Assembly (NCBI GenBank): GCA_002450835.1
Contig: DKAM01000019.1
Coordinates: 5,991-69,990, forward strand
Direction: 5' to 3'
DNA from: Dehalococcoidia bacterium UBA6926
Lineage (GTDB): Bacteria; Chloroflexota; Dehalococcoidia; UBA6926
Length of the DNA: 64,000 bases
Part shown: positions 2,130 through 28,844 of the stretch, piece by piece
How the letters are laid out: each line of letters begins with the position of its first letter
How positions within the stretch are numbered: position 1 is the stretch's first letter
Program-made: the position numbers and the translations under genes
The notes under the pieces: generated by a model
What the model was told of the DNA's origin: nothing
Databases searched by the model: none
What the model saw: only the letters and a program-made list of their open reading frames with translations

Positions 2130-2132
2130 GGT

Positions 2133-3017
2133 ATGCGTTATGCTTTTTGGCCAGGTTGCGTGTCTAAGGCAGGAACTCCAGAACTGTTTCCAGCTGCAAC
2201 CGCGGTCGCTAATAAGATCGGTATGGATTTAGTAGAGCTTGATCAAGCAAATTGCACAGGAGCTGGTGTTTTAGGTGAGCGTAATGAAGAGCTCGTCGAT
2301 ACCCTAAACGCACGTAATTTTGCGATGGCGGAGCAAATGGGATTAGATACTATTTTGACCATTTGTTCTACTTGTCAGGGAGTTATGAGCTCGGTCAATT
2401 ATAAACTCAGGGAAAAACCCGAATACTTAGCCAAGATTAATGAAAATTTAAAAGAAGAAGGCCTAGAATATAAAGGAACGGTTCGCGTAACCCATATGAT
2501 GTGGGCTGTGGTTGAAGAACTTGGGTTGGATAAACTTTCTGAGATGGTAGTAAATCCATTAACAGGATTACGGATCGCTCCATTTTATGGCTGTTATATT
2601 TTACGACCGCGGTATGTTTTGGGAATGGATGAACATCCGGATAGAACACAATATTTAGAGAAAATTATTGCGGCATTAGGAGCAGAGCCGATCGATTATG
2701 AAGGTAAGCTTCGATGCTGTGGATTCCCAATCATGACGATCAATCAAGATAATGGTCTAAAGATGGTTGCAAACCATACGTTAGAAGCTAAGGATAAAGG
2801 GGCCCATGCCTTAGTTACGCCGTGCCCTTTGTGTCATTTAAATTTGGATGAATTTCAACCAAGAGCAGCAAGCAAAGCAGGAGAATCAATAGATATGCCG
2901 GTACTGCATCTGCCTCAATTAATTGGGTCTGCTTTGGGGTTCAATGTCAAGGAAATGGGATTAAAAAGACATATAATATCCACAGATAATTTTGTTGAAA
3001 TAGCAGGTATCTCATAG
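2133..3017 (+). CDS. CCG-domain Cys-rich subunit (heterodisulfide reductase B-like; SdhE/SdhC of type E succinate:quinone oxidoreductases)
   Basis: Two Cys-rich CCG-like motifs (CSTCQG...; CCGFP...CPLCHLNLD). Lies directly after sdhA-sdhB with a 3-nt gap. No predicted transmembrane helices. Confidence 0.75.
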   Translation: MRYAFWPGCVSKAGTPELFPAATAVANKIGMDLVELDQANCTGAGVLGERNEELVDTLNARNFAMAEQMGLDTILTICSTCQGVMSSVNYKLREKPEYLAKINENLKEEGLEYKGTVRVTHMMWAVVEELGLDKLSEMVVNPLTGLRIAPFYGCYILRPRYVLGMDEHPDRTQYLEKIIAALGAEPIDYEGKLRCCGFPIMTINQDNGLKMVANHTLEAKDKGAHALVTPCPLCHLNLDEFQPRAASKAGESIDMPVLHLPQLIGSALGFNVKEMGLKRHIISTDNFVEIAGIS

Positions 3018-3765: not shown

Positions 3766-4695
3766 CTAAAGATTATCCATTGCATCAATTAATTCTTCGA
3801 CGGCTGCAATTGAATTATCAAACCCTGCCTTTTCTTCGTCTGTAAGCTCAAGCTCGATAATTTTTTCTACTCCCGACTCTCCCAATACAACTGGAACCCC
3901 AATGAATACGTTATTAACACCGTATTCACCTTCTAAATACGCTGCTGCTGGAACAACCCGTTTTTTGTCTAGGATTATTGCGTCTGCCATCTGAAGAACT
4001 GCTGCAGACGGAGCATAGAAAGCAGAACCTGTTTTCAATAAGCTGACGATTTCACCGCCACCTTGTCGAGTACGTGTAACTATTGCATCAATTTTTTCAC
4101 TAGACATCCAGTGGTCCAGAGGTAAACCTCCCACAGTTGCATACCTTACGAGCGGGACCATCGTGTCTCCATGACCTCCTAGCACATATGCTTGTACGTC
4201 TTCTACCGATACATTTGTTTCTTGTGCTATAAAAGTTCTCATTCTTGCGGTATCAAGGACACCTGCCATTCCTAACACTCGTTCTTTGGGGAATCCCGAT
4301 TGTTTGTAAGCTTCGTACACCATTGCATCCAGAGGATTGGATACTATGAGGAGTATAGAGTTTGGCGACTTTTGTACTACCTCTTTCACAACACTTTGCA
4401 TTATTGATTTATTAGTACGAAGTAAGTCATCTCGCGTCATACCGGGTTTTCGAGCTATACCAGCTGTAATTACAACGAGATCCGAATCCTTAGTTTCATC
4501 ATATGTGTTTGTACCAGTCACATTACTGTCATATCCAAGGATCGGTCCACTCTCTGCCAGATCCAAGGCTTTTCCTTGAGGCATACCTTCTACTACGTCT
4601 ACTAATACAATATCAGCATAGTCTCTTTCTGCTATTCTTTGTGCAACGGTCGCACCTACGTTTCCACCGCCAACGACTGTGATCTTTTTTCTCAT
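3766..4695 (-). CDS. mdh: Malate dehydrogenase (LDH-like family)
   Basis: N-terminal [18 protein letters not shown]-binding motif. [14 protein letters not shown] has the substrate-specificity Arg (MDH, not LDH). Catalytic His in [15 protein letters not shown]-aaac Shine-Dalgarno sequence before the ATG. Confidence 0.9.
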
Positions 4696-4785: not shown

Positions 4786-6684
4786 TTACTTACTGGGACC
4801 AACTACTACTAAAGCATCTCCTTTAGCGACTCTGTCACCACTATTTCTGGGTAGCTCTAGTATAATGCCGTCTGCGGATGCCGGCAGCATATTTTGCATT
4901 TTCATAGCTTCTATGACAACCAAAGTATCGCCTTTTTTAACTTTGTCACCGATTTTAACTTCGTATCTTATAACCAACCCTGGCATTGGAGCTGTTATGA
5001 GGTAGCCTCCTTCAGGTGCAGACAAACCAGATTTAGTTACTTCCGTGGATGACATCGCTGGTGGTGGCTGCAAAGGCCGCCCTCCTTGGTTCGGATCTCT
5101 AAAGCTTCTAATTCTAGGGCCAGTTGTGTTGGAAGACTCCACTATTATGTCAAATTCCTTTTCACCTACGTAAACTTTGTATGACCTAGAGTTCGCTCCT
5201 GGACCAACCGCCGGTTTGTTTACATCCTTTGTATTTGGTTCCTCTTGTTTTTCCGTAGAATAGGATTCTTTTTTAGGAGGGTCATCGATTCCGTGCTTCC
5301 AACGAAGGAACTGAAGTCCGGTTACAGGATATAGCGCATAAATTAGAACATCTCCTTCATCCGAGGAAATGTCGATGATATCCTCTTTTGCTTTGGCAAG
5401 TTCTGGTTCGAGGATATCAGCCGGTTTTTCTTTGGTAGGAGTTTCACCGCGTTCGTATCCCTTTAAAACCTTTTTTACCACCCGTTTATTCATAGGCAAG
5501 GGTGGTTGCCCGTATAGCCCAAATACGTAGTCTTTGATTTGCTGGCTTACCATCTCGTATCTACCGAACAAAACATTTTGAACTGCTTGAATACCTATAA
5601 TCTGGCTCGAGGGTGTTACTAACGGTGGATATCCAAGGTCTTTTCTAGTTTTCGGTAGTTCCTTTAGTACATCGGGGAGTTTGTCTAAAGCGTCAGCCTC
5701 AGCGAGCTGTGAAAGTAGGTTTGAGGTCATTCCTCCGGGAACTTGATGGGTTAGAACACTGGTATCTATTGTACTGAATTTTGATGGAGCCATAAAATCT
5801 GAGTAATGTTCTTGTAAGATGGTTTCTAATTTATCGCTGGCATCAATTATTCTATTTAGGTTAAAACCGGTGCTTCTTTCTGTTTTGTCTAAAGTCACAA
5901 TCAGAGGCTCCAATGGGGGATGCGCAGTTCTGAGTGATAATGGTGCTAAATCTGTATCGACAATATCTATTCCTGCTTCTATTGCTTTTAATTGGGTCAT
6001 TTGGCCCATACCGGATGTGTAGTGGGCATGTAATTCTATGGGTATAGAAACTGCATCTTTCAAAGCACTAACTAACTCGTATGCATCGTACGGAGATAAA
6101 AGAGCTGCCATATCTTTAATACACAAAGAATCGGCACCCATCTTCTCAATAGTTTTAGCTTTTTCGATAAAATAGTCTAAATTGAATACTGGTCCTCCCA
6201 TCTGCTGTTCGGTTACCGAGTAGCAGATAGTTCCTTGAACATGCTTTCCAGCTTCCTTTATAGCATCAAATGAAGATTCAAAATTCCGATGATCGTTTAA
6301 CGCATCGAAAACACGAAATATATCTATTCCTGACTTGGCAGAATATCTAATAAACTCTTTAACTACGTCGTCGGGGTAATTCCTGTAACCCACGAGATTT
6401 TGCCCTCTTAGTAGCATCATAAAAGGAGTTTTTGGTGCTACCTTTTTTAGGTCCTTTATACGCTCCCATGGATCTTCATTTAAATATCTCGTCATTACGT
6501 CAAAGGTAGCTCCACCCCATACTTCGAGAGCGGCGAATCCAACTTTATCAAGCATCCCTATTATTTCTTTTATGTGATTCGTCCGCATCCTTGTTGCCAT
6601 AATTGATTGATGCCCATCACGAAGGGTCACATCTGTGACTTGGACTTTAGAATCAGAGTTACGAAAAATATCTTTTGGATCCAT
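4786..6684 (-). CDS. Carboxyltransferase 5S-type subunit fused to a C-terminal biotinyl (BCCP) domain (PycB / OadA / transcarboxylase-5S-like)
   Basis: N-terminal VTDVTLRDGHQS TIM-barrel carboxyltransferase motif. C-terminal IEAMKMQN biotin-attachment motif preceded by a Pro/Ala linker. Confidence 0.85.
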   Translation of the reverse strand: MDPKDIFRNSDSKVQVTDVTLRDGHQSIMATRMRTNHIKEIIGMLDKVGFAALEVWGGATFDVMTRYLNEDPWERIKDLKKVAPKTPFMMLLRGQNLVGYRNYPDDVVKEFIRYSAKSGIDIFRVFDALNDHRNFESSFDAIKEAGKHVQGTICYSVTEQQMGGPVFNLDYFIEKAKTIEKMGADSLCIKDMAALLSPYDAYELVSALKDAVSIPIELHAHYTSGMGQMTQLKAIEAGIDIVDTDLAPLSLRTAHPPLEPLIVTLDKTERSTGFNLNRIIDASDKLETILQEHYSDFMAPSKFSTIDTSVLTHQVPGGMTSNLLSQLAEADALDKLPDVLKELPKTRKDLGYPPLVTPSSQIIGIQAVQNVLFGRYEMVSQQIKDYVFGLYGQPPLPMNKRVVKKVLKGYERGETPTKEKPADILEPELAKAKEDIIDISSDEGDVLIYALYPVTGLQFLRWKHGIDDPPKKESYSTEKQEEPNTKDVNKPAVGPGANSRSYKVYVGEKEFDIIVESSNTTGPRIRSFRDPNQGGRPLQPPPAMSSTEVTKSGLSAPEGGYLITAPMPGLVIRYEVKIGDKVKKGDTLVVIEAMKMQNMLPASADGIILELPRNSGDRVAKGDALVVVGPSK

Positions 6685-6923
6685 TAGTACGATCTCCGAT
6701 AGTTGTTAGTGAGTGCTATGCTTTTTTGGTGGTGGTGTTTGTATTTAGAGTCAGTGGGTATTCTATTGGACATTTGAGACAATCGGCCTCTTAACCTCCA
6801 TTTGTTAGTTGGCTCGCTCAGATTTCTCAATCTTATCTCTTCTTCATAATCATTTATCACACTTAGAATTGCTGCGCTAAGTTCTTCATCTATCGAATCT
6901 ATATCCAGATTAGTACTATTCAT
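6684..6923 (-). CDS. Small ORF, possible acyl-CoA carboxylase epsilon-like subunit
   Basis: 79 aa between the 12S and 5S genes. N-terminus EELSAAILSVINDYEEE resembles the EELAALVAVL-type motif of AccE/PccE epsilon subunits. Stop overlaps the 5S ATG. Weak evidence. Confidence 0.35.
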   Translation of the reverse strand: MNSTNLDIDSIDEELSAAILSVINDYEEEIRLRNLSEPTNKWRLRGRLSQMSNRIPTDSKYKHHHQKSIALTNNYRRSY

Positions 6924-6924
6924 T

Positions 6925-8478
6925 TTAGAGAGGTATATTCCCGTGTTTCTTTGAAGGAACTGAATCAGTTTTATTTTCTAACATTGATAGCGCGCTGACT
7001 ATCATTTTCCTTGTATCTGAGGGGTCAATGACATCCTCTATGTAACCCTTGCTAGCTGTAACATATGGGTTTGCGAATTGTTCTTGATATTCTTGAGTAG
7101 CAAGTTTTCTTTCCATTTCTGAATTTTCTGATTCTCTAATTCGATTTCTAAAAATAATATTAGCGGCTCCTTCAGCTCCCATAACAGCCATTTCTGCGCC
7201 TGGCCAAGCATAATTTATGTCTCCTCTGAGCATCTGGGAGGACATTACAATTAATGCTCCACCATACGCTTTTCTTGTCACAATTCCTACCTTTGGCACG
7301 GTTGCTTCAGTATATGCATACAATAGTTTGGCTCCATGCGTTATGATGCCGTTATGTTCTTGATCTACGCCTGGTAAGTAGCCGGGAACATCAGTTAGGG
7401 TAACTAGTGGAATATTAAAGCAATCACAAAATCTAACGAATCGAGCGGCTTTTATGGCAGCTTTGATGTCTAAAGCTCCGGACATGACCATAGGTTGTTG
7501 ACCTATTATGCCTGTTGTCTTCCCGTTAAATCTGCCAAACCCCACTACAATGTTTTGGGCCCATGATTGGTGGACTTCCAAAAAGCCCCCACCAATATCC
7601 ACTATCGAATCAATGAAATCTCTCATGTCATAGGGTTGGTTTGGGTCTTCTGGAACTAAGTCCATCAATTCTGGGGTTGGTCTACTAGGATTATCTGCAG
7701 TATCTGCAAACGTAGAATCCTCCAAGTTATTCGATGGAAGAAAGCTTAGCAGATCCCTGGCAAGGTCTAAGCTTTCTTCCTCACCATCAGTGCCGAAATG
7801 TGCTACTCCACTCATTGTTGTGTGAGCATCGGCACCACCTAATTGCTCGTGTGTTACTTCCTCACCGGTAACGGTTTTTATTACGTCTGGACCGGTTATA
7901 TACATTTGGCCTACGCCTTTTTCCATTATAATGAAATCAGTTAGAGCAGGGCTGTAAACGGCTGCGCCAGCAGCTGGACCCATTATGATACTAATTTGAG
8001 GAATCACTCCAGAGGATAAGACATTCCTTTGAAAGATTTGCCCTACACCCCAGAGGCTGTCAACACCTTCTTGAATCCTAGCCCCGCCTGAATCCAAGAT
8101 ACCTATTATTGGGGACCCAGTTTTTAGTGCTAGGTCTTGGACCTTCATAGTTTTTTTTGAAGCAACCAATGACATGGTTCCCCCTAAAACAGTGAAGTCA
8201 AAGGCGTATACAAAAACTGTTCTACCATCAATTTTCCCATACCCTGTTACTACTGAATCACCTGGGACTTTTCTGTCTGCTATTCCAAATTCATTGACAT
8301 CATGCGTTACAAAAGGATCTAGTTCAATAAAAGTTCCAGGATCTAAAAGGCGGTTGATTCTCTCATGCGCAGTCATTTTGCCCCGTGCATGTTGTCTTTC
8401 TATTGCCGCTTCGCCCCCACCTTGAGACGAGGCAGATCGACGTTTGGATAATTCATCAAGTTTATCTTGCATAGTCAT
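6925..8478 (-). CDS. pccB: Propionyl-CoA carboxylase beta chain / methylmalonyl-CoA carboxyltransferase 12S subunit
   Basis: Canonical N-terminus (DKLDEL...GGG...IERQHARGKMTAHERI..LLDPGTF.E) and two crotonase-like carboxyltransferase halves. Confidence 0.9.
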   Translation of the reverse strand: MTMQDKLDELSKRRSASSQGGGEAAIERQHARGKMTAHERINRLLDPGTFIELDPFVTHDVNEFGIADRKVPGDSVVTGYGKIDGRTVFVYAFDFTVLGGTMSLVASKKTMKVQDLALKTGSPIIGILDSGGARIQEGVDSLWGVGQIFQRNVLSSGVIPQISIIMGPAAGAAVYSPALTDFIIMEKGVGQMYITGPDVIKTVTGEEVTHEQLGGADAHTTMSGVAHFGTDGEEESLDLARDLLSFLPSNNLEDSTFADTADNPSRPTPELMDLVPEDPNQPYDMRDFIDSIVDIGGGFLEVHQSWAQNIVVGFGRFNGKTTGIIGQQPMVMSGALDIKAAIKAARFVRFCDCFNIPLVTLTDVPGYLPGVDQEHNGIITHGAKLLYAYTEATVPKVGIVTRKAYGGALIVMSSQMLRGDINYAWPGAEMAVMGAEGAANIIFRNRIRESENSEMERKLATQEYQEQFANPYVTASKGYIEDVIDPSDTRKMIVSALSMLENKTDSVPSKKHGNIPL

Positions 8479-10870: not shown

Positions 10871-12715
10871 ATGAATGACCATAATAATGGAACCGACCTA
10901 ATAAGAAATTTCTCTATCATCGCTCATATTGATCATGGAAAATCTACTCTTGCGGATAGGCTTATGGAAAGCACGAGCACTATCGATCAGAGATCGATGC
11001 AAGATCAACTCTTGGATCAGTTAGAACTAGAAAGAGAGAGAGGAATTACAATCAAAGCTCAGGCTGTAAAGATGATGTATACAGCTAGGAACGGTTTAAC
11101 ATATCAATTTAACCTTATTGATACTCCAGGACACGTAGATTTTAGCTATGAAGTATCTCGCAGTTTGGCTGCTTGTGAGGGAGCTATTCTGGTGGTTGAT
11201 GCATCTCAAGGAATCCAAGCTCAAACGTTAGCGAATACTTTTCTTGCAAATGAGTTAGGGCTAAATATAGTTCCGGTGATCAACAAAGTAGATCTTCCAA
11301 GTGCGAGACCCGTGGAAGTTACAGAAGAACTAGGTGAAACCCTAGCGATACCTTCGGAAGAAGTATTGTTGGCATCTGCTAAAGAAGGGATTGGCATTGA
11401 TGATATTTTGGAATCTATAATTGATAAAGTGAATCCCCCTAATCAAAATGAGAGTAGACCACTCAGGGCTTTAGTGTTTGATTCAAAATATGACCAATAT
11501 AAGGGCGTTATAGCGTACGTGAGAGTATTTGATGGCTCAATTCCGGATTCCACTGATTTGAGATTAATGTCTAATGACAAGTTAATCCAACCCCTTGAAA
11601 TTGGTGTATTTTCTCCGTGGCTGCTTCCGGTAGACGAAGGTTTATCTTGTGGCGAGGTTGGATATATCGCAACTGGCTTAAAAGATGTAAGGGAATGCAG
11701 AGTGGGAGACACAATTACTCTTATGGAGGACGGAGCATCTGATGCTCTACCAGGGTATCGGCCTTTGCAATCAATGATTTTCGCCGGTCTTTTCCCGTCA
11801 GAAGGATCAAGATACGATGATTTAAGAGATGCTCTAGAGAAATTGCAGCTTAATGACGCAGCATTATCTTACGAGCCAGAAAACAGTTCTGCACTAGGTT
11901 TTGGTTTCCGTTGTGGGTTTCTGGGTCTATTACATATGGATATTGTGAGAGAACGTCTTGAACGAGAATATGATATTGAAATAATTGTAACCGCACCCAG
12001 TGTAGGTTATGAGATTGAAAAAACTGATGGAAGCTTTGATATTATTCATAACCCAGCTGATTTCCCAAGTTCTAACTTGATCCAATCTGCGAGAGAGCCT
12101 TGGATAAAAGCAACGATTATAACTCCTAATGCTATGGTCGGACCGGTAATGGAACTAATGTCTGAACGTAGGGCAGTTTATAAGACAATGGAATATATAC
12201 AAACCTCATCAAGTGGGGATCAAAACCAGGCTAGGGTACTGCTTCAATACGAGATGCCATTATCAGAAATGCTGATCGATTTTTTCAACCAGCTTAAATC
12301 CCGAACTCAGGGTTACGCTTCTCTTGATTATGAATTTATCGAAAATCGAGAATCTGATTTGGTGAAGTTACAGATATTAGTTAATGAAGAGCCAGTAGAT
12401 TCATTAAGCCTCATATGCCATAAGGATAACTCTTATTATAGGGGTAAGGCTCTAGTGACACGATTGAAAGAGACGATACCCCGCCAGATGTTTGATATAC
12501 CGATACAGGCTGCTATAGGTGGGAAAATTATCTCCAGAGAAACGGTACGTGCGATAAGAAAGAATGTTCTTGCAAAATGCTATGGTGGGGACGTTACGAG
12601 GAAACGGAAATTGCTAGAAAAGCAAGCAGAAGGTAAAAAGAGGATGCGAAGAGTTGGGCGTGTAGAAGTACCTCAAGAGGCATTTTTATCATTGCTTCAA
12701 TTAGATGAGGACTGA
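10871..12715 (+). CDS. lepA: Translation elongation factor 4
   Basis: [22 protein letters not shown]1 motif, [13 protein letters not shown]. Conserved LepA C-terminal domain. The ORF track starts at TTG 10853; the ATG at 10871 is preferred. Confidence 0.9.
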
Positions 12716-12719
12716 GCAC

Positions 12720-13088
12720 ATGATTACTGACCTAATAGGTATAATTATTTGGTCTGAAAGACCTGCTGAGTTGGCTGATTTCTACTCTAGTAAAATAGGA
12801 CTAGCCCCCGTTAGTACACATGGAGACTTCACAGCATTTGAGCCTCACCCAGGGTTTAGATTTAGCATTGGAGGCGCTCATCCAGATGTAAAGGGCATAA
12901 ACAAAGATAGCAAAAGATTTATGCTGAATTTTTTGACAGATGATATATTTGCCGACTACAAAAGACTAACGGAAGAAGGTGTTTCTTTTATCCGTTCTCC
13001 AGAAAAAGAATCTTGGGGTGGCTGGGTGGCAACTTTCTTGGATATAGATGGTAATACTTTGCAATTAATGCAGATGGAACCTAGATAG
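12720..13088 (+). CDS. VOC (glyoxalase/bleomycin-resistance) family protein
   Basis: Size and beta-alpha-beta-beta-beta module pattern. ATG placed just after the lepA stop, with a GAGGA Shine-Dalgarno sequence 8 nt upstream. Confidence 0.55.
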   Translation: MITDLIGIIIWSERPAELADFYSSKIGLAPVSTHGDFTAFEPHPGFRFSIGGAHPDVKGINKDSKRFMLNFLTDDIFADYKRLTEEGVSFIRSPEKESWGGWVATFLDIDGNTLQLMQMEPR

Positions 13089-13142: not shown

Positions 13143-13176
13143 CGTTTTAGTAGATTAATTGGGAGGTTGGCAAGCA

Positions 13177-14865
13177 ATGGAATCAGATTATTTAAAGAAT
13201 AAACCTCGATCTTGGCAAGTTACTGAAGGAGTCGAACGTGCTCCTCACAGATCTATGTTTTATGCCATGGGATTTACCCCTGAAGACCTAAAAAAGCCTT
13301 TGATAGGTGTCGCTTCAACTGCTAATGAAGTGACTCCATGTAATTTGGCGTTAGGACGTCTTGCGCAGCATGTAAAAGAAGGCATCAGAGCCGCCGGAGG
13401 AACGCCGATAGAATTTACAGCTATAGCAGTATCAGATGCGATTTCTATGGGTCATGAAGGGATGAAAGCATCCCTAGTAAGTAGAGAAGTTATAGCTGAT
13501 TCCTTTGAGCTAGTCGCGATGGCTGAAGCATTGGATGGAATGGTCACATTAGCTGGCTGTGATAAGAGTTTACCGGGTTCCGTAATGGCTATGGCCCGAA
13601 CCAATATACCGTCGGTGTTTCTTTATGGCGGAACCATTATGCCCGGTCAGCATCAAGGTAAAGATGTCACTATCGTGGATGTTTTTGAAGCTGTTGGGGC
13701 CCATGCGGCAGGTACTATACCATTAACTTTGGTGCAAGAATTAGAGGAATGTGCTTGCCCCGGGGAAGGTTCTTGTGGTGGTATGTTTACGGCAAACACG
13801 ATGTCTTCAGTCTTTGAATCGATGGGACTATCGCTTCCAGGTAATTCTTCGATACCAGCGATTGATCCAAGGCGCGAAGAACTAGCTTTTCAGAGTGGGG
13901 AAGCTGTTGTTCAGCTAGTTAAAGATGATCTAAAACCTAGTGATTTGATAACAAGAGAATCCATAGAGAATGGTATTACTACTGCTATGACTATGGGTGG
14001 CTCAACTAATGTTGTACTACATCTTCTTGCTATCGCTCATGAACTAGGGATACCACTGGATATGGAAGATTTTCAGGTTATCAGTGATCGTACCCCTCTA
14101 ATAGCAGACATGAAACCGGGTGGAGAGTATGTAATGGCTGATTTAGATAAGCTAGGTGGTATCAGTTTTGTACTCGATAGGTTGATTGAGTCTGGCTATG
14201 TGGACGGTAATTTGCCGACGGTAACTGGGGATTCAATATCAGGTAATCTTAGCCGAATTGATACCAATATGAACCAGGAAAAGAAAATTATATACGACCT
14301 TGGGGATCCAATAGAAAAAACGGGCGGCATTGTGATTTTGTCAGGGAATCTAGCGCGAGAAGGAGCTGTGATTAAAACAGCAGGGACATCGATAAAAAAA
14401 CATGTTGGCCCAGCTAAGGTATTTGATCGGGAAGAGGATGCTTTTTTGGCCGTTCAAAATCAAGAAATTGTTGCAGGTGATGTTGTTGTGATTCGCTACG
14501 AAGGTCCTAAAGGTGGTCCAGGTATGAGAGAAATGCTTGGAGTTACAGCAGCTATAACAGGGCAAGGTTTAGGAGAGAAAGTAGCTTTATTGACTGACGG
14601 GCGCTTTTCAGGAGGTACTCATGGAATAGCAGTAGGCCACGTTGCACCGGAAGCTATGGTTGGAGGAACATTAGCAATTATTGAGGATGGAGATGTGATT
14701 TCCTTAGATATAAATAACCGTAAAATCGAAGTAGCTCTTACAGAAGGCGAAATACAGAATCGCCTAGATAATTGGGTAGCACCTGACCCCAAACACGCAA
14801 CTGGAGCTCTGGCTAAATATGCTAAATTGGTCTCGTCAGCTTCTTTAGGAGCTGTAACACAGTGA
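13177..14865 (+). CDS. ilvD: Dihydroxy-acid dehydratase
   Basis: [32 protein letters not shown] (Fe-S ligands), [14 protein letters not shown] Shine-Dalgarno sequence 10 nt upstream of the ATG. Confidence 0.9.
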
Positions 14866-15185
14866 GCTCAAAACAAAACGAATCGCCTCCTCAAATTAAA
14901 CATCTCAGGCTTGAACCTGACGGTATACATGTGGTTTGGTCAGACGGGAGAGGAAGTGCATTTCCCTACCGATTCTTACGTGGTAATTGTCCCTGTGCAA
15001 TTTGCGTATTAGAGGGAACGAATCAAAGAGTAGTATTTGAGAAAGACGTGCCGGAGGATGTAGTCGCTATAGACTGGATGAATATTGGGCGTTATGCTGT
15101 TCAATTCTTATGGTCCGATGCTCACGAAACAGGGATTTACCCTTTTAGATATCTTCGAGAATTGGAATCGGTTCTGGGTGGATAA
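14862..15185 (+). CDS. DUF971 (gamma-butyrobetaine hydroxylase-like N-terminal domain) protein with CxCxxC motif
   Basis: [34 protein letters not shown] and [12 protein letters not shown] match the DUF971 pattern. GTG start overlaps the ilvD stop by 4 nt. Confidence 0.6.
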
Positions 15186-15205: not shown

Positions 15206-17614
15206 CTACTTGATTGCACCTAGTTTTGTGAAGTCCTCGATTTCTTTTTGTGATAACCCCAGTATTGTTCGAAATACATAATCGTTATCATCACCGATTA
15301 AGGGCGTTCTACCATTAGCCCATGATGCAGATATTGATGGTATTCCAGGTAACCCTTGATGTGATAACTTGCCCCATGGAGCCTGGTCGTTATCGACTAC
15401 ATGGGCTCTGGATCTCATTTGTTGGTTGTTCAGCAGGTGTTCGCCTTTTAGCATAACTCCTGCAGGCACTCCTAAAGATTGAAGCAGATGCATCAATGGA
15501 TGAGGGTAATGAGAAGAAGACCAATTAGCGATATTTGAATCTAGCTCCTTTCTATTAGCTCTCCTATTGCTAATAGAGTTAAATTTTTTATCACTAACCC
15601 ACTTTGGTTCGCCCAGCGCAGTTTTCAATCCTTGCCACTCTTCTTCGGTTTCCACAGCTATGATTACCCATTCATCTTCTCCAAGACAAGGGTACGCACC
15701 ATAGGGAGAATACTGCTGACCAAGTATTTCGTTATACCCTTGTGCATCCCATTCTTTTGTATTTACTGTGCTATCTAATATAGAAGGTCCCATAAGTGCG
15801 CCTTGAGCCTCCAGTTGTGCTAATTCAATGAATTGTCCTTCTCCTGTTAAGTCGCGGAACTCTATGGCGGCCAGTGAGGATAGTGCGACAAGGGCTGCTC
15901 CTAAATAATCTGGTATGACTATTTTACCGTGTGATTCCATAGGTGATTCTTCGTGGCCCCACATATGTATCATTCCGGTGTATGCGAGTAGCTGCGTTCC
16001 CCATGTGACCCAGTCCGTAAGTGGTCCATCGAGCCCCATACCTGGTGCAGTTATTTGTATTAATCCAGGGTTAATGGCTCTTGTTTTGTCCCTCCCAAAT
16101 CCTAACCGATCAATAACTCTAGGAGAAAAATTATCGATGAAAATATCGCTCTGTTTTAGTAGTGCTTCCAATAATAGTTTTCCATCACTATTTCTCAAAT
16201 CGAATGTCGCGCTCAGCTTATTTCGATTCATATCTGGGTAAAGGACACCTTCTCTAGTTGCGACTAGTAATTCAGATTCAAGTTTTATTACCTCGGCTCC
16301 ATAAAACCCCATAAACATAGTACCTATTGGACCTGCAAAAAATCTCGAGAGATCGGCTACGCGGATACCCTTTAACATCGGGCTATCTTTTGTTTCTAAT
16401 TTTTCTTTGGGGGCTGCATTTGTCTTCTTTCTCGATCCTGTACTTAATTCATCTAGGATTTCATCCTGATGTTGTCCTAGAGTTGGAGAAGACCGCCAAA
16501 CTTTCATCGGGGTTTTTTCCATTTTAAAGGGAAATCCCGGAGCCTCATATTCACCTATAATGGGATGATCGATTTTTTGGACCCATTTCCTCTGTTTTAA
16601 GTGATTGCTTTGCATAAAATCCCCAGGTGTGTTCACTGGGGCGCAAGGGAGACCTCGCTTCTGACATTCATTTACAAAATCTTCGGACGTAAATTGGGCG
16701 ACGAAATCTTGCATGGCCATACTAATTACATCCGCGTTTTCTTCGCGGTAGTCCGGGTTATCCCATTCAACCCCTGATAACAGTGGATCTTCCATCCATT
16801 CCCTTGTAATTTTATGCCAATGAGGAAGAATAAAAATTGACATATATATATATTTTCCATCTTTACAGCGAAAAATATTGGAAGCGCCTGCTTGCCCTTT
16901 TACCCCATGGCGCTTTAGTACTTCATTTCTTCCGGAGTACCGTGCAATAGCGCTCATAGCCATGTAGGAGATACTTTCTGTTAACGCTTGATCAATTTTT
17001 TGGCCTTGTCCTGAGCGCCTGGCATGACGTATGCCAGCAAGTGTCAAATATGATGAGTGTACTCCAGCTAATTGATAGGTTATATGATTCGGAGTTACTA
17101 CAGGGGGCATCAGATCATCGCCGTGAACTGACATAAACCCGGATAGTGCCTCCACAATCGCGTGGGACCCTTTATAGGCTGCGTAAGGGCCAGTTTCTCC
17201 GAATGGTGTTATGGATGTTGTAACTAAGCGTTTATTTCTTCCTAAAAGGATTTCTTGGCCTAAGCCAAGTTCTTCTAGATACCCTGGATTATTTGATTCA
17301 ATAAGAGCATCTGCAGTTTCTATAAGCTGCAAAAATGTTTCCTTATCTTTAGGCGAGCCCACTATATCGAGGGCAATAGATCTCTTGTTTAGATTTGCAT
17401 TGATAAAACTTAGGCTTCGCTCAGGGTCTTCTATATTATTGGCAAAAGGTGGCAGTAATCTATTGGGGTCTCCTTTAAGCGGTTCAATTTTAATGATATC
17501 TGCGCCTAAATCGCCGAGCCATCGGGTTGCATAGGATGAAGGGATGCCGCCATATTCTAAGATCCGTAAGTGACCCAGCGATGCCCTATCAGGTGTATGT
17601 ATATTTTCTGGCAT
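15206..17614 (-). CDS. Fused tandem di-domain family III CoA-transferase (CaiB/BaiF family), paralog 1
   Basis: 802 aa. Residues ~1-400 and ~410-802 each contain a complete CaiB-like domain (HLRILEYGGIPSSYATRWLGDLGADIIKIE and GIRVADLSRFFAGPIGTMFMGFYGAEVIKLE Rossmann N-termini). ~70% identical to the adjacent paralog. Confidence 0.8.
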   Translation of the reverse strand: MPENIHTPDRASLGHLRILEYGGIPSSYATRWLGDLGADIIKIEPLKGDPNRLLPPFANNIEDPERSLSFINANLNKRSIALDIVGSPKDKETFLQLIETADALIESNNPGYLEELGLGQEILLGRNKRLVTTSITPFGETGPYAAYKGSHAIVEALSGFMSVHGDDLMPPVVTPNHITYQLAGVHSSYLTLAGIRHARRSGQGQKIDQALTESISYMAMSAIARYSGRNEVLKRHGVKGQAGASNIFRCKDGKYIYMSIFILPHWHKITREWMEDPLLSGVEWDNPDYREENADVISMAMQDFVAQFTSEDFVNECQKRGLPCAPVNTPGDFMQSNHLKQRKWVQKIDHPIIGEYEAPGFPFKMEKTPMKVWRSSPTLGQHQDEILDELSTGSRKKTNAAPKEKLETKDSPMLKGIRVADLSRFFAGPIGTMFMGFYGAEVIKLESELLVATREGVLYPDMNRNKLSATFDLRNSDGKLLLEALLKQSDIFIDNFSPRVIDRLGFGRDKTRAINPGLIQITAPGMGLDGPLTDWVTWGTQLLAYTGMIHMWGHEESPMESHGKIVIPDYLGAALVALSSLAAIEFRDLTGEGQFIELAQLEAQGALMGPSILDSTVNTKEWDAQGYNEILGQQYSPYGAYPCLGEDEWVIIAVETEEEWQGLKTALGEPKWVSDKKFNSISNRRANRKELDSNIANWSSSHYPHPLMHLLQSLGVPAGVMLKGEHLLNNQQMRSRAHVVDNDQAPWGKLSHQGLPGIPSISASWANGRTPLIGDDNDYVFRTILGLSQKEIEDFTKLGAIK

Positions 17615-17674
17615 TTGTCACCTCCGTCTCATATATGAGTAGCTCTAGTTTGAAAAAAACAGAGCAAATACAAT

Positions 17675-20080
17675 TTAGTTGATTGCGCCTGAGTTGATAC
17701 CCTCACTTATATCTTTTTCTGTCATTCCTAGTATTTCTCCAAAAACATAATCGTTATGGTCTCCGATCCAAGGAGGTAAACCATCTGCGTGAGCTTCTGA
17801 CATTCCTGGAATAGCTGGGAGGCCTTGGTGTGATAGGTCTCCCCATGGAGGTTCATGTATATCTACAATGTGCCCTCTCTTCCTTAGATGTATATTGCTG
17901 TAAAGATCTTCTCCATTTAACACGGCACCAGCTGGCACTCCGTTATTTTGCAATATACGCATTGCTTGATACCGGGTGTATTCAGAACTCCATGCACCTA
18001 TTTGCGCATCTAAATCCTTTTGGTTTTCTTTGCGTTTCTCATGGGAAGAATACTTTTCATCATTAATCCAAGTGGGATTTCCAAGTGCATTAACTAAGCC
18101 TTCCCATTCCGATTCTTCAGATACAGCTATAACAACCCAATTATCGTCTCCTTTACATGGATATGCGCCATATGGAGCGTAGTGGTCGCCTAATATTTCT
18201 CCATAACCCAAAGCATCCCATTCATTTTGGTTAACCGTTGCATCTAATATAGAAGGCCCCATTATGGCTCCTTGCGCTTCTACCTGGGCAAGTTCAATAA
18301 ATTGACCAATTCCGGTTCGGTCGCGATATTCGATAGCCGCAATTGAGGATAAAGCAACAAGAGAAGCTCCCAAATAATCTGGTACAACCAGTTTCCCGTG
18401 AGCATCCATGGAGGATTCTTCGAAAGCCCACATGTGTGTTAGTCCTGTATATGCGACTAGCTGATTCCCCCAAGTTACCCAGTTTGTTAACGGCCCATCT
18501 AGCCCCATACCGGGTGCTGTAATTTGTATTATGCCAGGGTTAATCGTTTGAACTCGATCCCAACCAAATCCTAAACGGTCTATGACACGAGGAGAGAAAT
18601 TGTCGATTAGAACGTCACTTTTTATTAAAAGTTCATCCAATAAAGATTTTCCTTGATCATTCCTTAGGTCGAAAGTCGCGCTTAGCTTATTTCTATTCAT
18701 ATCAGGATATAAAACCTGTTCTCGGTTTGCTACCAATAGCTCGCTTTCAAGTTTTATTACCTCAGCTCCATAAAATCCCAAAAACATGGTGCCTATAGGA
18801 CCAGCAAAGAAACGCGTAAGATCAGCGACACGGATGCCACTAAGCATAGGGGCTTCTGGAGATACAAGTTCAGTATTCTGGTGAGTTTCTTTTTTTGTTT
18901 CAAGGGTTTCTAGTTCTGCAAGTATTTCTTCTTGGTGCTCGCCCAAAGTTGGAGAATGCTTCCATGCCCGCATAGGTGTTTTCTCCATTTTAAATAGGAA
19001 CCCGGGAGCTTGGTATTCACCAATTACTGGATGGTGAAGAGTTTGTATCCAATTTCTCGATTTGAGTTGTTCGCTGTTCATGAATTCTCCAGGAGTATTC
19101 ACAGGGGAACATGGTAACCCACGCTCTTGACATTGTGCGACGAAATCTGCAGCATCAAATTGTTCAATAAATGATTGTAAAAGTACATTTATAACGTCGC
19201 CATTATCTCCTCTATATTGAGCGTCATCCCATTCTTCTCCTGATAGTACAGGATCCTCCATCCATTCCCTTGTTATTTTGTGCCAGTGGGGAAGTATGTA
19301 TATCGATATATAGATATATTTCCCATCCTTACACCGAAAAATATTAGAAGCGCCTCCTTGCGGTTTCGCTCCATTTCGCTCCACAATCTCACTTCTATCG
19401 GTATATCTTGCTACAGCGCTAGAGCCCATATAGGTAATACTTTCTTGAATCGATTGGTCTATTTGTTGGCCCTTGCCAGACCTTTTACTATGGCGGATTC
19501 CTGCAAGTGTTAGATAAGCACCATGGACGCTCGCCACTTGATAAGTAATATGGTTAGGGGTAACTACCGGTGGCATAATGTCATCCCCGTGGGCACTCAT
19601 GAAACCTGCAAGTGCTTCAACGATCCCGTGAGAACCTCGGTATTTTGAGTACGGACCAATTTGTCCAAAAGGGGTTATGGAAGTGGTTACAAGATTTTCA
19701 TTGGTATTTAGTAAAACCTCTTGGGAAAGGCCCCAACCATCAAACGTTCCCGGACGGGTTGATTCAACAAGAGCATCCGCGCTAGCTATTAATTTTAGAA
19801 ACGTTTCTTTATCTTTTTCTGAACTTTCTAGGTCCAGGACTATGGATCGTTTATTTAGATTTGCATTTATAAAAGTTAGGCTCTTTTCTGGATCAGGAAC
19901 GTTTCCAGAAAAAGGTCCAAGCGTCCTTGCACTGTCACCGCCGGGTTTCTCAATCTTAATAACGTCGGCCCCTAAATCTCCTAGCCATCTAGTTGCGTAC
20001 GACGCCGGGATATCTCCATATTCTAGTATTCTAAGATGGCTCAAAGCGCCATGATTTGGCTTATCTAGTGGTGTCGTCAT
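17675..20080 (-). CDS. Fused tandem di-domain family III CoA-transferase (CaiB/BaiF family), paralog 2
   Basis: 801 aa, same architecture. Co-linear with paralog 1 over its full length (about 70% identity by eye). A 60-nt spacer separates the two genes. Confidence 0.8.
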   Translation of the reverse strand: MTTPLDKPNHGALSHLRILEYGDIPASYATRWLGDLGADVIKIEKPGGDSARTLGPFSGNVPDPEKSLTFINANLNKRSIVLDLESSEKDKETFLKLIASADALVESTRPGTFDGWGLSQEVLLNTNENLVTTSITPFGQIGPYSKYRGSHGIVEALAGFMSAHGDDIMPPVVTPNHITYQVASVHGAYLTLAGIRHSKRSGKGQQIDQSIQESITYMGSSAVARYTDRSEIVERNGAKPQGGASNIFRCKDGKYIYISIYILPHWHKITREWMEDPVLSGEEWDDAQYRGDNGDVINVLLQSFIEQFDAADFVAQCQERGLPCSPVNTPGEFMNSEQLKSRNWIQTLHHPVIGEYQAPGFLFKMEKTPMRAWKHSPTLGEHQEEILAELETLETKKETHQNTELVSPEAPMLSGIRVADLTRFFAGPIGTMFLGFYGAEVIKLESELLVANREQVLYPDMNRNKLSATFDLRNDQGKSLLDELLIKSDVLIDNFSPRVIDRLGFGWDRVQTINPGIIQITAPGMGLDGPLTNWVTWGNQLVAYTGLTHMWAFEESSMDAHGKLVVPDYLGASLVALSSIAAIEYRDRTGIGQFIELAQVEAQGAIMGPSILDATVNQNEWDALGYGEILGDHYAPYGAYPCKGDDNWVVIAVSEESEWEGLVNALGNPTWINDEKYSSHEKRKENQKDLDAQIGAWSSEYTRYQAMRILQNNGVPAGAVLNGEDLYSNIHLRKRGHIVDIHEPPWGDLSHQGLPAIPGMSEAHADGLPPWIGDHNDYVFGEILGMTEKDISEGINSGAIN

Positions 20081-25059: not shown

Positions 25060-25452
25060 TTAAATATCGTTGACGTAAGAAACGATATCCCCCAAACTTG
25101 TTCCTGGGCCAAAAATCCCTTTGATACCTAGCTCTTCAAGTTCCTGATAATCTTGCTTAGGTATTATACCTCCAGCGAAAATTGCGACGTTATCTAACCC
25201 AGCATTTTGTAGCCCTTCGACGATTGCCGGGAATAGATCTAAATGTGCTCCAGACAGTATGCTTAGTCCTATGGCATCTACATCTTCTTGCAGGGCCGCC
25301 TGGACAATCATTTCTGGTGTCTGGCGTATCCCAGTATAGATGACCTCAAAACCTGCGTCCCTTAGTCCCCGTGCTACGACTTTTGCTCCCCTATCGTGGC
25401 CATCGAGCCCGGGCTTGGCGATCAGTATTCTTTTTGGTGTGGTGGTAGACAC
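25060..25452 (-). CDS. Methylmalonyl-CoA mutase B12-binding subunit (stand-alone C-terminal domain)
   Basis: [25 protein letters not shown] (DxHxxG cobalamin motif) and the flavodoxin-like fold signature. Confidence 0.9.
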
Positions 25453-25485: not shown

Positions 25486-26310
25486 CTAAATTTCTCCAGC
25501 ATGGTTCGCGTTTTCATCTGTTAATAATACGAGAGTTCCGACAAAATCCAAAGGGTGTAAGGCCGTTAAAACTGGATCTCCGTTGTCGACAATAACTCGA
25601 ATATTCTTGTCTTCGGCTCTTTTAGCAATTACTGAGCTATCATCATTCTCTATAACTATGGCGTGCAACCCACTGCCAAAAATCTTTATTGCTTTTGCGA
25701 CTGGACCCGTTGAATTTAGTTGTTCTGCAAATTCAACTTCACTATTTTTTGTATCGAGCCATCCAGTATCCATTTCATAACTTTCAGATACGGCGGTTCT
25801 TTTTATTGGCATTTTAAACAAATCGGACCAGAGTTTTAGGTCTTTTTTCATATTCTCAGTTCTTAGAGTCACATGATGTAGAGAGATATCGATATTAGGA
25901 TCAAGAGCGGTTTCGGGCTCCTCAATAATACTGAGCCTTGTACCGCCTGTAGAATCAGGGTCCATCAAAATTGATTTCTTACCGTAAATCTCATTTTGGC
26001 GAATAGATGATTTGGCCCCTGAGGATTCAATGTGCTTTTGAAGAGAAGCAAGGTTATCTGTTGCCATACATATGTCGTAAAGGCCTTCTCCTCTGGTTGA
26101 AAGAAGCACCGCTGCGTCAGATTCCCCCGGCGATGGTGCTATCAGTTGGATGTTAGCATTTTTTGTGGGAATTGAGATCGTTTGTCCGAGATCAATGGTT
26201 TTTAAGCTATTTTCTTTAGGAGAAATACCGAGTACTGATTCGATTTTTGAAGCGGCAGCATCAATATCATTTACCAGTATTGAAACGTGTTTAATTTTGT
26301 TTATTGACAT
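25486..26310 (-). CDS. Two-domain VOC family protein, methylmalonyl-CoA epimerase-like (paralog A)
   Basis: 274 aa, two complete VOC domains (IKHVSILVNDID... and LHHVTLRTEN...). Located between the mutase catalytic and B12 genes. Confidence 0.6.
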   Translation of the reverse strand: MSINKIKHVSILVNDIDAAASKIESVLGISPKENSLKTIDLGQTISIPTKNANIQLIAPSPGESDAAVLLSTRGEGLYDICMATDNLASLQKHIESSGAKSSIRQNEIYGKKSILMDPDSTGGTRLSIIEEPETALDPNIDISLHHVTLRTENMKKDLKLWSDLFKMPIKRTAVSESYEMDTGWLDTKNSEVEFAEQLNSTGPVAKAIKIFGSGLHAIVIENDDSSVIAKRAEDKNIRVIVDNGDPVLTALHPLDFVGTLVLLTDENANHAGEI

Positions 26311-27119
26311 TATGTACCCCTTTTATCATTGAACATGATTAAAGTTCCAAAAAAGTCTAAAGGATGTATTAATCTTGCTACATTTTCACCCTGTTGATCC
26401 GCGATCACCCTTATGCCTTGCTTCTCGATTCTCGATTGTAATGCGCTGGCATCATCCGTTTCTAGTACTAGGCCATAAATACCTTCTCCTTGAGACTCTA
26501 TACGTTTTATTACCGGTCCGTTTGGCGCCGTTTGCTGTACAAATTCAATTTGTGAGTTACCTGCATCCAACATGGCCGTTTTTAAGGGTGCGTCATCACG
26601 TTCAGCTTTTCTATTTAACTTTAAGTTGAAACTATTTACCCAATTGTCTACAGCTGCATCACGGTCTAGAGTTGCGATAAGAAGATGATGAACACTTGTT
26701 GTTGTTTCCGTTGGCGTTCGTAAATTAACTTCAGCGATTTCTGTAAGAACACCATTTGCAGATTTAGGGTGAATAAATTCGATTTCTCCCACAAACCCTT
26801 CTCTTGGACTACCTCCAATAACTTGCACGTCTTTTGATTGCAATGTTGTTATTTCATTTGCTATATCTTCTACCTCAAAACATATGTGGTGAATTCCTTC
26901 ACCTCGTCTCTCCAGAAATTTACCCACTACGCTATCAGGTACGGTCGGCTGCATGAGCTCAAACCTGACATTTGCTGTGGGTATCAGAGCAGCAATAAGC
27001 TGCTGGTCTTCTATCTCTTCTTGTTTTGCGACTTCGAGTCCTAACACTGTAGAAAACTGGTCTATAGCCTTGGATATGTCTTTTACTGCGATTCCTATGT
27101 GATCAATTCTTTTAAACAT
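26310..27119 (-). CDS. Two-domain VOC family protein, methylmalonyl-CoA epimerase-like (paralog B)
   Basis: 269 aa. N-terminal half IDHIGIAVKDISKAIDQF...GEGIHHICFEVEDI is a classical MCE-like pattern; the second half is another full VOC domain. Stop/start overlap with paralog A. Confidence 0.6.
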   Translation of the reverse strand: MFKRIDHIGIAVKDISKAIDQFSTVLGLEVAKQEEIEDQQLIAALIPTANVRFELMQPTVPDSVVGKFLERRGEGIHHICFEVEDIANEITTLQSKDVQVIGGSPREGFVGEIEFIHPKSANGVLTEIAEVNLRTPTETTTSVHHLLIATLDRDAAVDNWVNSFNLKLNRKAERDDAPLKTAMLDAGNSQIEFVQQTAPNGPVIKRIESQGEGIYGLVLETDDASALQSRIEKQGIRVIADQQGENVARLIHPLDFFGTLIMFNDKRGT

Positions 27120-27158: not shown

Positions 27159-28844
27159 CTAGAAGACTACCATTTCTTTTTGGACACCAAATATCTCTCT
27201 TAGAACGTCACTAATTTCGCCCGTTGTAGCCAAGGCCTCTACACACTCAATGATGGCTGGCATAGTGTTGTCTTCACTTCTAGCAACTTTGCTTAAATTA
27301 GCTAGTGCTGCTTCTACTTCAGATGAATTTCTTTTAGCCTTGACGCGGTTCAGACGCGCAATCTGGTTCTCGCTTTCTTTCGGATCAATTCGTAATATCT
27401 CTATAGGGGGTTCCTCCGTTGATTGGAATGCATTCACTCCGACGACTAATCTGCTTCCCTTTTCTATCTCAAGTTGCATTTGGTATGCCGCTTCATTAAT
27501 TTCTCTTTGTTGGAATCCTTGTTCTATTGCTATGACTGCCCCTCCAAGTTTATCAATTTGCTCTATGTATTTTTTAGCTTCTTGTTCCAATTGGTTAGTT
27601 AAGTTTTCAATTAAATAGGAACCAGCTAAAGGATCAATGGAATTTGTGATGCCAGACTCATGGGCCAATATTTGTTGCGTCCTAAGAGACACAGTAACCG
27701 CCTCCTCAGTAGGTAATGCTAGAGCTTCGTCTTTAGAATTTACGTGTAAAGACTGCGTACCGCCTAATACTGCTGAAAGAGCTTGGAGTGTTGATCGGAC
27801 TACGTTATTGTCCACCTGCTGGGCGGTCAACGTTACTCCTGCTGTTTGTGTATGGAATCTTAACGTTTGAGATCTTGGATTTTTTGAACCAAAGCGCTCA
27901 ACCATTATTTTTGCCCATAGTCTTCTAGCTGCTCTGAATTTTGCTACTTCCTCAAGTAAGTCACTTTGCGCTACAAAAAAGAATGCGAGTTGAGGCGCAA
28001 AATCATCTACCTCAAGGCCTGCAGCTATCGCAGCTTCTACGTACGCGATCGCGTGAGAAAGAGTGAAAGCTATCTCTTGAACAGCTGTGCATCCTGCTTC
28101 CCTCATATGGTAACCGCTAATTGATATTGTGTTCCAATTTGGGGTTTCAGAGGCGCAGTAGGCAAATAAATCGGTAATTAATCTCATAGAAGGTTTTGGA
28201 GGATATATGTAAGTCCCTCTCGCGACGTATTCCTTTAATAGATCGTTCTGAATAGTCCCGCGTAAATCTTTGGCGGGTACACCTTGTTTTTTTGCCACAG
28301 CTATATAGTAAGCTAGCAGGATTGAAGCGGTGGCGTTAATAGTCATTGATGTGGAGACTTTGGACAAATCAATGTCGTTGAAAGCGATCTCCATATCTTC
28401 CATATGGGATATTGGTACTCCTACTTTACCTACTTCCCCCAAAGCTATTGGGTGATCTGAATCGTATCCGGTCTGTGTAGGTAGATCGAAAGCCATAGAA
28501 AGGCCTGTTTGTCCTTGGTCCAATAAATATCGGTATCTGGTGTTTGTTTCTTCAGCTGATGCAAAACCGGAATATTGTCGCATTGTCCAGAGACGCCCTC
28601 TGTACATAGTGGGTTGGACGCCCCTTGTAAAGGGATATTGGGCTGGGTAACCAATATCATCTGAACCACTCGAGTCTGGTAGGTCTTCTGGTCCGTATAT
28701 TGGTTCAATATCTATATCAGAGGTAGTTGAAAAATTTATGTCTCGCTCTTTCCGCTTTTCAACCGCTGGACTCCATACTTTATCAATCCAATCTTTTTTG
28801 CTTTTTGGATTCTCCACATTTTCCCCCATTACATTTGGATACAA
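27159..28844 (-). CDS. Methylmalonyl-CoA mutase catalytic (large) subunit, N-terminal domain only
   Basis: [58 protein letters not shown]-barrel substrate-binding signature. No B12 domain; that is encoded separately. TTG start at 28844. Confidence 0.9.

Follow-up and report, generated by a model that had tools for sequence, protein, structure and literature searches.

Which kind of enzyme is encoded by two long, adjacent CoA-transferase genes of Dehalococcoidia bacterium UBA6926, an uncultured marine member of the Chloroflexota, and does each of the two chains carry one active site or two? The region studied is a 64-kb window of this genome (the whole stretch of DNA analysed, whose coordinates are used throughout). 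According to the open reading frames (ORFs) and their translations, gene A (15206..17614, minus strand) encodes an 802-aa two-domain family III CoA-transferase, and gene B (17675..20080, minus strand) encodes an 801-aa paralogue, the conservative copy of the pair. In SAR202 and related Dehalococcoidia, few enzyme families are as expanded as the CaiB/BaiF paralogues, which are thought to channel unusual carboxylic acids of recalcitrant marine organic matter into CoA-dependent catabolism. An earlier note on this DNA had described both proteins as head-to-tail fusions of two CaiB-like domains, of which the N-terminal one had apparently lost its catalytic residue. We propose, with a probability of about 80%, that each protein is a single-chain, fused alpha-beta family III CoA-transferase with one active site, built around the Asp of its C-terminal half (C-half).

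Domain Architecture of the Gene Pair

Genes A and B are co-directional and separated by 60 bp. A Pfam profile search detected two separate CoA_transf_3 (PF02515) stretches in each protein, with whole-protein E-values of 5e-160 for A and 1e-161 for B (cut-off, 23.3 bits), as expected from the earlier note, and the strings quoted there, LGDLGADIIKIE, FYGAEVIKLE, and TPNHITYQ, were all found in the translations. The identity between A and B, which had been estimated at ~70%, was measured as 66% over the full length, the lone gap being one residue. In gene A, the N-terminal half (N-half) comprises aa 12–392 (16439..17581, minus strand); it resembles chain A of BbsEF, the succinyl-CoA:(R)-benzylsuccinate CoA-transferase (PDB 9fn0/9fol/9fun), is without catalytic residues, and is predicted to be a non-catalytic partner domain. 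A poorly conserved inter-domain linker of lower model confidence follows (aa 393–412; 16379..16438, minus strand). The C-half (aa 413–802; 15209..16378, minus strand) resembles chain B of BbsEF and bears the catalytic residues.

The Catalytic Aspartate Is Retained Only in the C-Terminal Half

Each half was searched against the PDB sequences with phmmer, and the matched PDB sequences were rebuilt from those alignments and aligned with the N- and C-halves of 15 family members, to which four Rhodococcus half-sequences were later added. Column counts were taken over 122 family sequences. The canonical catalytic Asp and the AGP motif were kept solely in the C-half. The Asp of this half, which is the predicted nucleophile (D569 in A, codon 15908..15910; D568 in B, codon 18377–18379; minus strand), was invariant in 122/122 family members and was preceded by Pro in 121 of them. 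It shares its column with the catalytic Asp of human SUGCT (9br6), of the Brucella formyl-CoA transferase Frc (10uh), of 4ed9, and with D178 of BbsEF chain B. That D178 is the chain B Asp ('NYTD178HVMV') was established by counting along the printed alignment, and the title of PDB 9fol reads 'BbsEF, D178-CoA adduct'. Together with P568-D569, the C-half of A keeps the canonical R418-x-A-D421-L-[ST]-x-x-x-A427-G428-P429; the codons of A427-G428-P429, the canonical N-terminal motif of family III, lie at 16328..16336 (minus strand), and this motif was found in the C-half only. The segment around the Asp had been read as the same in both paralogues, which holds for PDYLGA but not for the residues before it, A having IVIPDYLGA and B having LVVPDYLGA.

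In the N-half, the catalytic-Asp column is occupied by Tyr180 (codon 17075..17077 in A; equivalent codon 19541–19543 in B; minus strand), followed by an invariant Gln181. Position 180 was Tyr in 111 of the 122 members, Ser in 8, Phe in 2, and Ala in 1, and was acidic in none; BbsEF chain A likewise has a Tyr in this column. The N-half is also without the AGP motif and reads R-I-L-E20-Y-G-G-I-P25-S-S-Y28, with I24-P25-S26 lying within LEYGGIPSSYA. The N-half has lost two family III active-site hallmarks, the Asp and AGP, and the asymmetry is therefore real. Half-domain alignment in this way upheld the claim that only one half carries the catalytic Asp, but not the claim that an Asn had replaced it in the other. 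Neither of the outcomes named in the earlier note as refuting its reading, a single PF02515 match per protein or an Asp in both halves or in neither, was obtained. Asn176 (codon 17087..17089, minus strand) occupies a variable loop position (S in 66, C in 37, A in 8, and N in 7 members) four residues upstream of the catalytic column. In the alignment it pairs with D167 of BbsEF chain A instead of the D178-type Asp, and it was rejected as the replaced catalytic residue.

In the DSSP string of the AlphaFold model, both Y180 and D569 occupy the third position of equivalent long helices (178–201 and 567–590, respectively). This position agrees with the catalytic Asp of the family, which belongs to the last Rossmann helix, the active sites of family III being formed at the dimer interface (PMC9813914).

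The N-half has invariant residues of its own across the 122 members, namely E20, Y28, G165-D166, and Q181, of which the Gly-Asp pair (17117–17122 in A, 19583–19588 in B; minus strand) lies 14 residues upstream of Tyr180. These residues could line the active site of the C-half or form a separate site. If one of them, such as Asp166, were a relocated or non-canonical nucleophile, both halves would be catalytic and each chain would hold two different sites. The mean majority fraction of the N-half is as high as that of the C-half (0.721 and 0.728, respectively; 0.29 for the linker), which, like the invariance of these residues, speaks for two sites, as does the occurrence of D/E in the N-half catalytic column of ~22% of 139 diverse fused representatives described below. 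However, this column is never acidic within the A/B family and AGP is lost as well. Further, the Tyr is shared with BbsEF chain A, and the CoA adduct in the title of 9fol is on D178, a chain B residue by count. The conservation of the N-half would be expected even if it merely completed the C-half site, because family III active sites form at the interface (PMC9813914). We thus regard two catalytic halves in A and B as highly improbable.

The Two Halves Belong to Different BbsEF Subunit Lineages

Within one protein, the two halves share only 18% identity, and they matched different subunits of BbsEF. In the phmmer searches, the N-half scored 6.6e-48 (166.7 bits) against 9fn0_A versus 5.7e-32 (114.2 bits) against 9fn0_B, whereas the C-half scored 3.8e-41 (144.7 bits) against 9fn0_B versus 4.6e-06 (29.1 bits) against 9fn0_A. 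In a neighbor-joining tree of half-domains, for which the outgroup sampling was small (five PDB sequences), the split uniting the N-halves with chain A was recovered in 200/200 bootstraps, and that uniting the C-halves with chain B in 198/200. Because the halves are so dissimilar and cluster with different BbsEF subunits, these data suggested that A and B are fused alpha-beta heterodimers of the BbsEF type, each chain probably consisting of an alpha-type, non-catalytic subunit (N-half) covalently joined to a beta-type, catalytic subunit (C-half). The asymmetry would then go back to an old divergence between a catalytic partner and one without catalytic function. A fusion of two like CaiB domains, as had been assumed, does not describe the halves, which come from two old lineages, and a recent self-fusion of a homodimer gene was rejected on the same grounds.

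Predicted Structure of the Fused Chain

An AlphaFold2 model of the 802-residue gene A chain, built with a 66-sequence alignment, had a mean predicted local distance difference test (pLDDT) score of 91.3 and a predicted template-modeling score (pTM) of 0.94. Confidence dipped only at the N-terminus, at residues 240–244, and in the linker, with pLDDT values of 74–75 in the 10-residue blocks of 391–410. The chain is thus confidently predicted to form one compact body. In a Foldseek search of the PDB, BbsEF was the first match, with target-normalized template-modeling (TM) scores of 0.85–0.90 to whole subunits, and was followed by SUGCT, YfdW/Frc, YfdE, CaiB, Mct, and MCR. No target of ~800 residues was found in this search and the query-normalized TM scores were at most 0.46, so a fused member seems to be without a solved structure in the PDB copy searched. 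The high pTM and the superpositions onto complete subunits are consistent with an interlocked pseudo-dimer, although they do not prove it. The earlier note had suggested a structure prediction to see whether the halves recreate the interlocked ring; in the compact model, each half superposes on a complete BbsEF, SUGCT, or YfdW subunit.

Proposed Mechanism and Substrate

We propose that the halves are interlocked as in a family III dimer and that each chain has a single active site, formed where the Rossmann domain of the C-half meets the N-half. Asp569 would attack the acyl-CoA to give an acyl-aspartyl anhydride, which would be converted into an aspartyl-CoA thioester, and the CoA would be passed to the incoming carboxylic acid. 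This chemistry is drawn by analogy from the mechanism established for Frc, Mct, and the D178-CoA adduct of BbsEF. The N-half, its own site being dead, would serve as an obligatory structural partner that completes the cavity. The division into one catalytic half and one structural or regulatory half is accordingly seen directly for the Asp, present in the C-half only, while the part assigned to the N-half is a prediction from the alignments. A and B are thus predicted to be acyl-CoA:carboxylate CoA-transferases; how the halves interlock, where the site lies, which chemistry it performs, and which donor it uses are all predictions. As donor, succinyl-CoA is the most plausible, since BbsEF and SUGCT, the nearest characterized relatives, use it; succinyl-CoA with a dicarboxylate as acceptor is our best, but tentative, guess for the substrate pair.

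Several points weigh against the fused alpha-beta enzyme with one C-half site as proposed here. The interlock of the halves and the contacts around D569 are themselves predictions. The NCBIfam equivalogs for formyl-CoA, succinyl-CoA:mesaconate, succinate-glutarate, oxalate, and carnitine transferases all scored far below their cut-offs on A and B. All close relatives of A and B come from metagenome-assembled genomes (MAGs) of uncultured organisms, and the subfamily is known from sequence alone. The N-half, being as conserved as the C-half and having invariant residues of its own, may do more than scaffold. Finally, DddD doubles as a lyase and PtmU4 produces thioacids, so the chemistry of A and B may go beyond CoA transfer.

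Origin of the Pair and Breadth of the Fused Class

All of the 120 listed homologues with 46–100% identity to A are ~730–830 aa long, which indicates that the fusion predates the tandem duplication, as had been concluded before. Protein A is 100% identical to P0001, 'MAG: CoA transferase [Chloroflexota bacterium]', and a 91% identical homologue is found in a Dehalococcoidia MAG, the closest species-level genome. Compared with the single-copy orthologues of related Dehalococcoidia genomes, B was 70–72% and A 61–63% identical. In the tree, A (with P0002) and B (with P0003–P0005) formed sister clades, and two related genomes carry a single copy at the syntenic site between RNase J and the DUF971 gene. 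The tree and these single-copy syntenic orthologues showed the duplication to be lineage-specific. By sequence comparison, gene A is the faster-evolving copy and gene B the conservative one. Among 273 columns that were at least 90% conserved, A deviated at 34 and B at 30, and both proteins keep every family-invariant residue; relaxed selection or pseudogenization of A was not seen.

The fused architecture proved to be widespread, in line with the survey proposed in the earlier note. A search of 1.84 billion 50%-identity representatives returned 4,255 matches at E ≤ 1e-30. Of the best 150 of these (P0121–P0270), 139 were at least 700 aa long, and nearly all were full-length and collinear, down to 29–30% identity. 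The column assignments in these 139 fused representatives came from a quick add-to-alignment and may individually be one residue off; on this basis, the C-half column was Asp in 136, and the N-half column was non-acidic in 108 (Y 41, S 14, H 11, Q 10, W 7, and others) and D/E in 31. The latter 31 may possess two active sites. One representative, P0259 (860 aa), appears to be reversed, with the Asp in the N-half and a Tyr in the C-half.

The A/B subfamily itself is also represented in Binatia, Deltaproteobacteria, and Eisenbacteria from groundwater and soil. On plasmids of cultured organisms, the best matches to A and B were at most 31% identical. When plasmids were searched for a DddD, the best long single-piece match was an 874-aa fused protein of Paraburkholderia caribensis (L092). 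Its gene neighbors include an aldehyde dehydrogenase and a thiolase-like gene but not a BCCT transporter, and it cannot be called DddD.

Genomic Neighborhood and the Methylmalonyl-CoA Link

The pair is flanked on one side by ilvD and a DUF971 gene and on the other by RNase J, UDG, ACP, NusB, FabD, L32, and YceD, beyond which lies methylmalonyl-CoA mutase (MCM). The earlier note had placed the pair in a neighborhood rich in methylmalonyl-/succinyl-CoA enzymes, and the Pfam annotation of the window agreed. It contains an SDH/FRD flavoprotein with an Fe-S subunit and a CCG-domain subunit (24–3017), malate dehydrogenase (MDH, 3766–4695), a biotin-carrying HMGL-like/PYC_OADA carboxylase subunit with a carboxyltransferase (4786–8478), a small VOC protein (12705–13088), a B12-binding subunit (25060–25452), two tandem double-VOC (glyoxalase-fold) proteins (25486–27119), MCM (27159–28844), and a malic enzyme whose N-terminus bears an ACT domain (39487–40950). 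These genes are scattered among housekeeping genes, which also make up the rest of the window.

This gene set, together with BbsEF and SUGCT as succinyl-CoA-using nearest relatives, raised the question of whether A and B are fused SmtAB equivalents or another succinyl-CoA:dicarboxylate CoA-transferase tied to the mutase, epimerase, and carboxylase genes nearby, in a partial 3-hydroxypropionate bi-cycle or a propionate-succinate pathway of SAR202-type Dehalococcoidia. A partial 3-hydroxypropionate cycle has been proposed for SAR202, the VOC proteins are epimerase-like, and the order from MCM to the CoA-transferase recurs in two relatives whose orthologues are 61–63% identical. However, ~10 housekeeping genes (YceD, L32, FabD, NusB, ACP, UDG, and RNase J among them) separate MCM from A and B, and the synteny is confined to close relatives and may be inherited gene order rather than functional linkage. 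Paralogues of 50% identity lie between ThrRS and IF3, and more distant homologues lie in other contexts: with enoyl-CoA hydratases and a thioesterase, with an enoyl-CoA hydratase and an arylmalonate-decarboxylase-like gene, or with methylcitrate-cycle genes. No partner gene was common to all the loci of 50%-identity paralogues and distant homologues examined. An HpcH/HpaI gene near the orthologues, whose 254-aa product matches an HpaI-type aldolase in size, is missing from the window. The MCM link is weak because the synteny occurs in close relatives only, spans ~10 housekeeping genes, and was not seen at the loci examined for paralogues and distant homologues. A role tied to the MCM genes is therefore, in our judgment, unlikely; of the succinyl- or methylmalonyl-CoA-linked reaction suggested previously, the possibility stands, but the genomic argument for it is thin. 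The enoyl-CoA hydratase, thioesterase, and methylcitrate neighbors of the distant homologues fit acyl-CoA metabolism. As a long shot, E20, Y28, G165-D166, and Y180-Q181 of the N-half could form a second, non-canonical ligand site, holding the acceptor acid or sensing a CoA ester allosterically, with the SAR202-type orthologue being the missing succinyl-CoA-dependent dicarboxylate CoA-transferase coupled to the nearby MCM module.

On the side of ilvD (13159–14865, plus strand), which encodes dihydroxy-acid dehydratase, an Fe-S enzyme, the GTG start of the DUF971/GBBH-like_N gene (14862–15185, plus strand) overlaps the ilvD TGA stop (GTGA). Because of this overlap, the DUF971 gene seems to be translationally coupled to ilvD, not to the convergent CoA-transferase genes. 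In related genomes, it stays near both ilvD and the CoA-transferase gene. A related 1.87-Mb Dehalococcoidia genome has a 704-aa ORF without a Pfam match between its single-copy CoA-transferase gene and the DUF971 gene (L004:12510-14624). Two further ORFs of the window were noted, one of 464 aa (36679–38073, minus strand) with a weak AAA_5 match only and one of 170 aa (46530–47042, plus strand) with no Pfam match.

A Shine-Dalgarno sequence, GGAGGTGA, lies 5 nt upstream of the gene A ATG, and a promoter and terminator scan of the intergenic gaps gave nothing informative. Within gene A, a perfect 16-nt palindrome, CTTGGCCTAAGCCAAG (17254–17269), scores as terminator-like on both strands. Between 14800 and 22600, 13 terminator-like hairpins were counted against 6.7 ± 2.5 in shuffled sequences; they are somewhat over-represented, but lie within coding sequence.

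Comparison with Known Systems

The definition of type III CoA-transferases with two domains comes from Todd et al. (2007) and Dong et al. (2018), with DddD and PtmU4 as examples, and 2,401 two-domain homologues with a poorly conserved interdomain linker were counted in 2018 (PMC6006322). Before PtmU4, DddD was the sole characterized two-domain member; in PtmU4 and its homologues, the C-terminal domain contains a conserved Asp, mutation of which cuts activity 125–400-fold (PMC6006322). A and B resemble this class in having two family III domains in an ~800-aa chain, a poorly conserved linker (here 0.29 versus 0.72–0.73 for the halves), and a catalytic Asp that is conserved in the C-terminal domain. 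They differ in their genomic context, which is without a ddd operon and without a thioacid cassette, and in belonging to a Dehalococcoidia/Binatia/Deltaproteobacteria subfamily that has been seen only as sequence. In DddD, the catalytic residue is Asp602 of the C-terminal domain. Since both the architecture and the C-terminal Asp have been published for DddD and PtmU4 (PMC6006322), and the class is very large, the novelty implied by the earlier note is unsupported.

The same likeness raised the possibility that A and B are DddD-like bifunctional CoA-transferase/lyases, which would transfer CoA onto dimethylsulfoniopropionate (DMSP) or another beta-substituted acid and then eliminate a leaving group. 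DddD is the classic protein with two CaiB domains and requires its catalytic aspartate (PMC7174347, PMC4437653), and the host of A and B is marine. Landry et al. (2017), who described the expansion of CaiB/BaiF paralogues in SAR202, found a subset with DddD as the top Swiss-Prot match and suggested novel lyase functions (PMC5395668), although such a match may merely reflect that DddD is the sole fused entry. The ddd operon includes a BCCT-type DMSP transporter, the dddB/dddC dehydrogenases, and a regulator (PMC10664990), but no BCCT transporter, dddB/dddC-type dehydrogenase, or LysR regulator was found near A and B in the window or at the orthologous loci. Members of the A/B subfamily occur in groundwater and soil lineages where DMSP is not expected, and DddD is reported to be an outgroup to the other two-domain proteins (PMC6006322). 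Taken together, these points make a DddD-like lyase very unlikely.

That A and B are PtmU4-like, thioacid-forming sulfur transferases can be given hardly any credence. The thioacid cassette reportedly requires sulfur-carrier and acyl-CoA-synthetase partners, and Pfam domains of neither kind were present among the annotated neighbors in the window. Further, the thioacid group has been reported only from Actinobacteria and Beta-/Gammaproteobacteria (PMC6006322).

The fused alpha-beta reading is drawn from BbsEF, which is the best sequence and structure match and, like the halves of A and B, combines one Asp-bearing and one Asp-less (Tyr) partner of distinct lineages. In contrast to the single ORFs of 801–802 aa described here, BbsEF consists of separate polypeptides of 410 and 409 aa. 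Its identity to the halves of A and B is only ~30%, no bbs or bss genes lie near A and B, whose neighbors are RNase J, UDG, DUF971, and IlvD, and the host belongs to an aerobic-type marine Chloroflexota lineage and is not a toluene degrader.

Unfused alpha/beta pairs occur in catabolic clusters of Actinobacteria, for example on the Rhodococcus opacus plasmid pRop44186_a (L090:4061-6447), where two CoA-transferase genes overlap in their stop and start codons. As in A and B, one subunit is Asp-bearing and chain-B-like and the other Tyr-bearing and chain-A-like; unlike A and B, they are two genes, and the Asp-bearing one comes first and the Tyr-bearing one second, the reverse of the fusion order. 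With the catalytic gene first, the pair was rejected as a collinear unfused version of A and B. It sits in a beta-oxidation-type cluster with an acyl-CoA dehydrogenase, short-chain dehydrogenases/reductases (SDRs), a lipid-transfer/thiolase-like protein, and Zn-ribbon and OB-fold proteins. On a plasmid of Rhodococcus rhodochrous, the gene is fused (807 aa), and the catalytic column holds Glu in its N-half and Asp in its C-half. The split pair and this fused gene both lie within acyl-CoA dehydrogenase/hydratase clusters, and both arrangements, split and fused, thus exist in cultured bacteria.

The current picture of family III CoA-transferases is unchanged by A and B, and the characterization of one fused member would be of modest practical value. 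The additions made here are the half-for-half match to the BbsEF subunits and the exact replacement of the Asp, Tyr180, in the A/B subfamily. This homology provides PDB 9fn0/9fol as a template for pocket modeling, and Asp569 is a clean target for mutagenesis. With the homodimeric family III enzymes (Frc/YfdW, CaiB, SUGCT, YfdE, and Mct) and the racemase MCR, A and B share the PF02515 fold and, in their C-half, also the Asp column and the DL[ST]xxxAGP motif. In those enzymes, two ~400-aa chains form a symmetric dimer that has two identical active sites, whereas A and B are predicted to be covalent pseudo-heterodimers with one canonical site.

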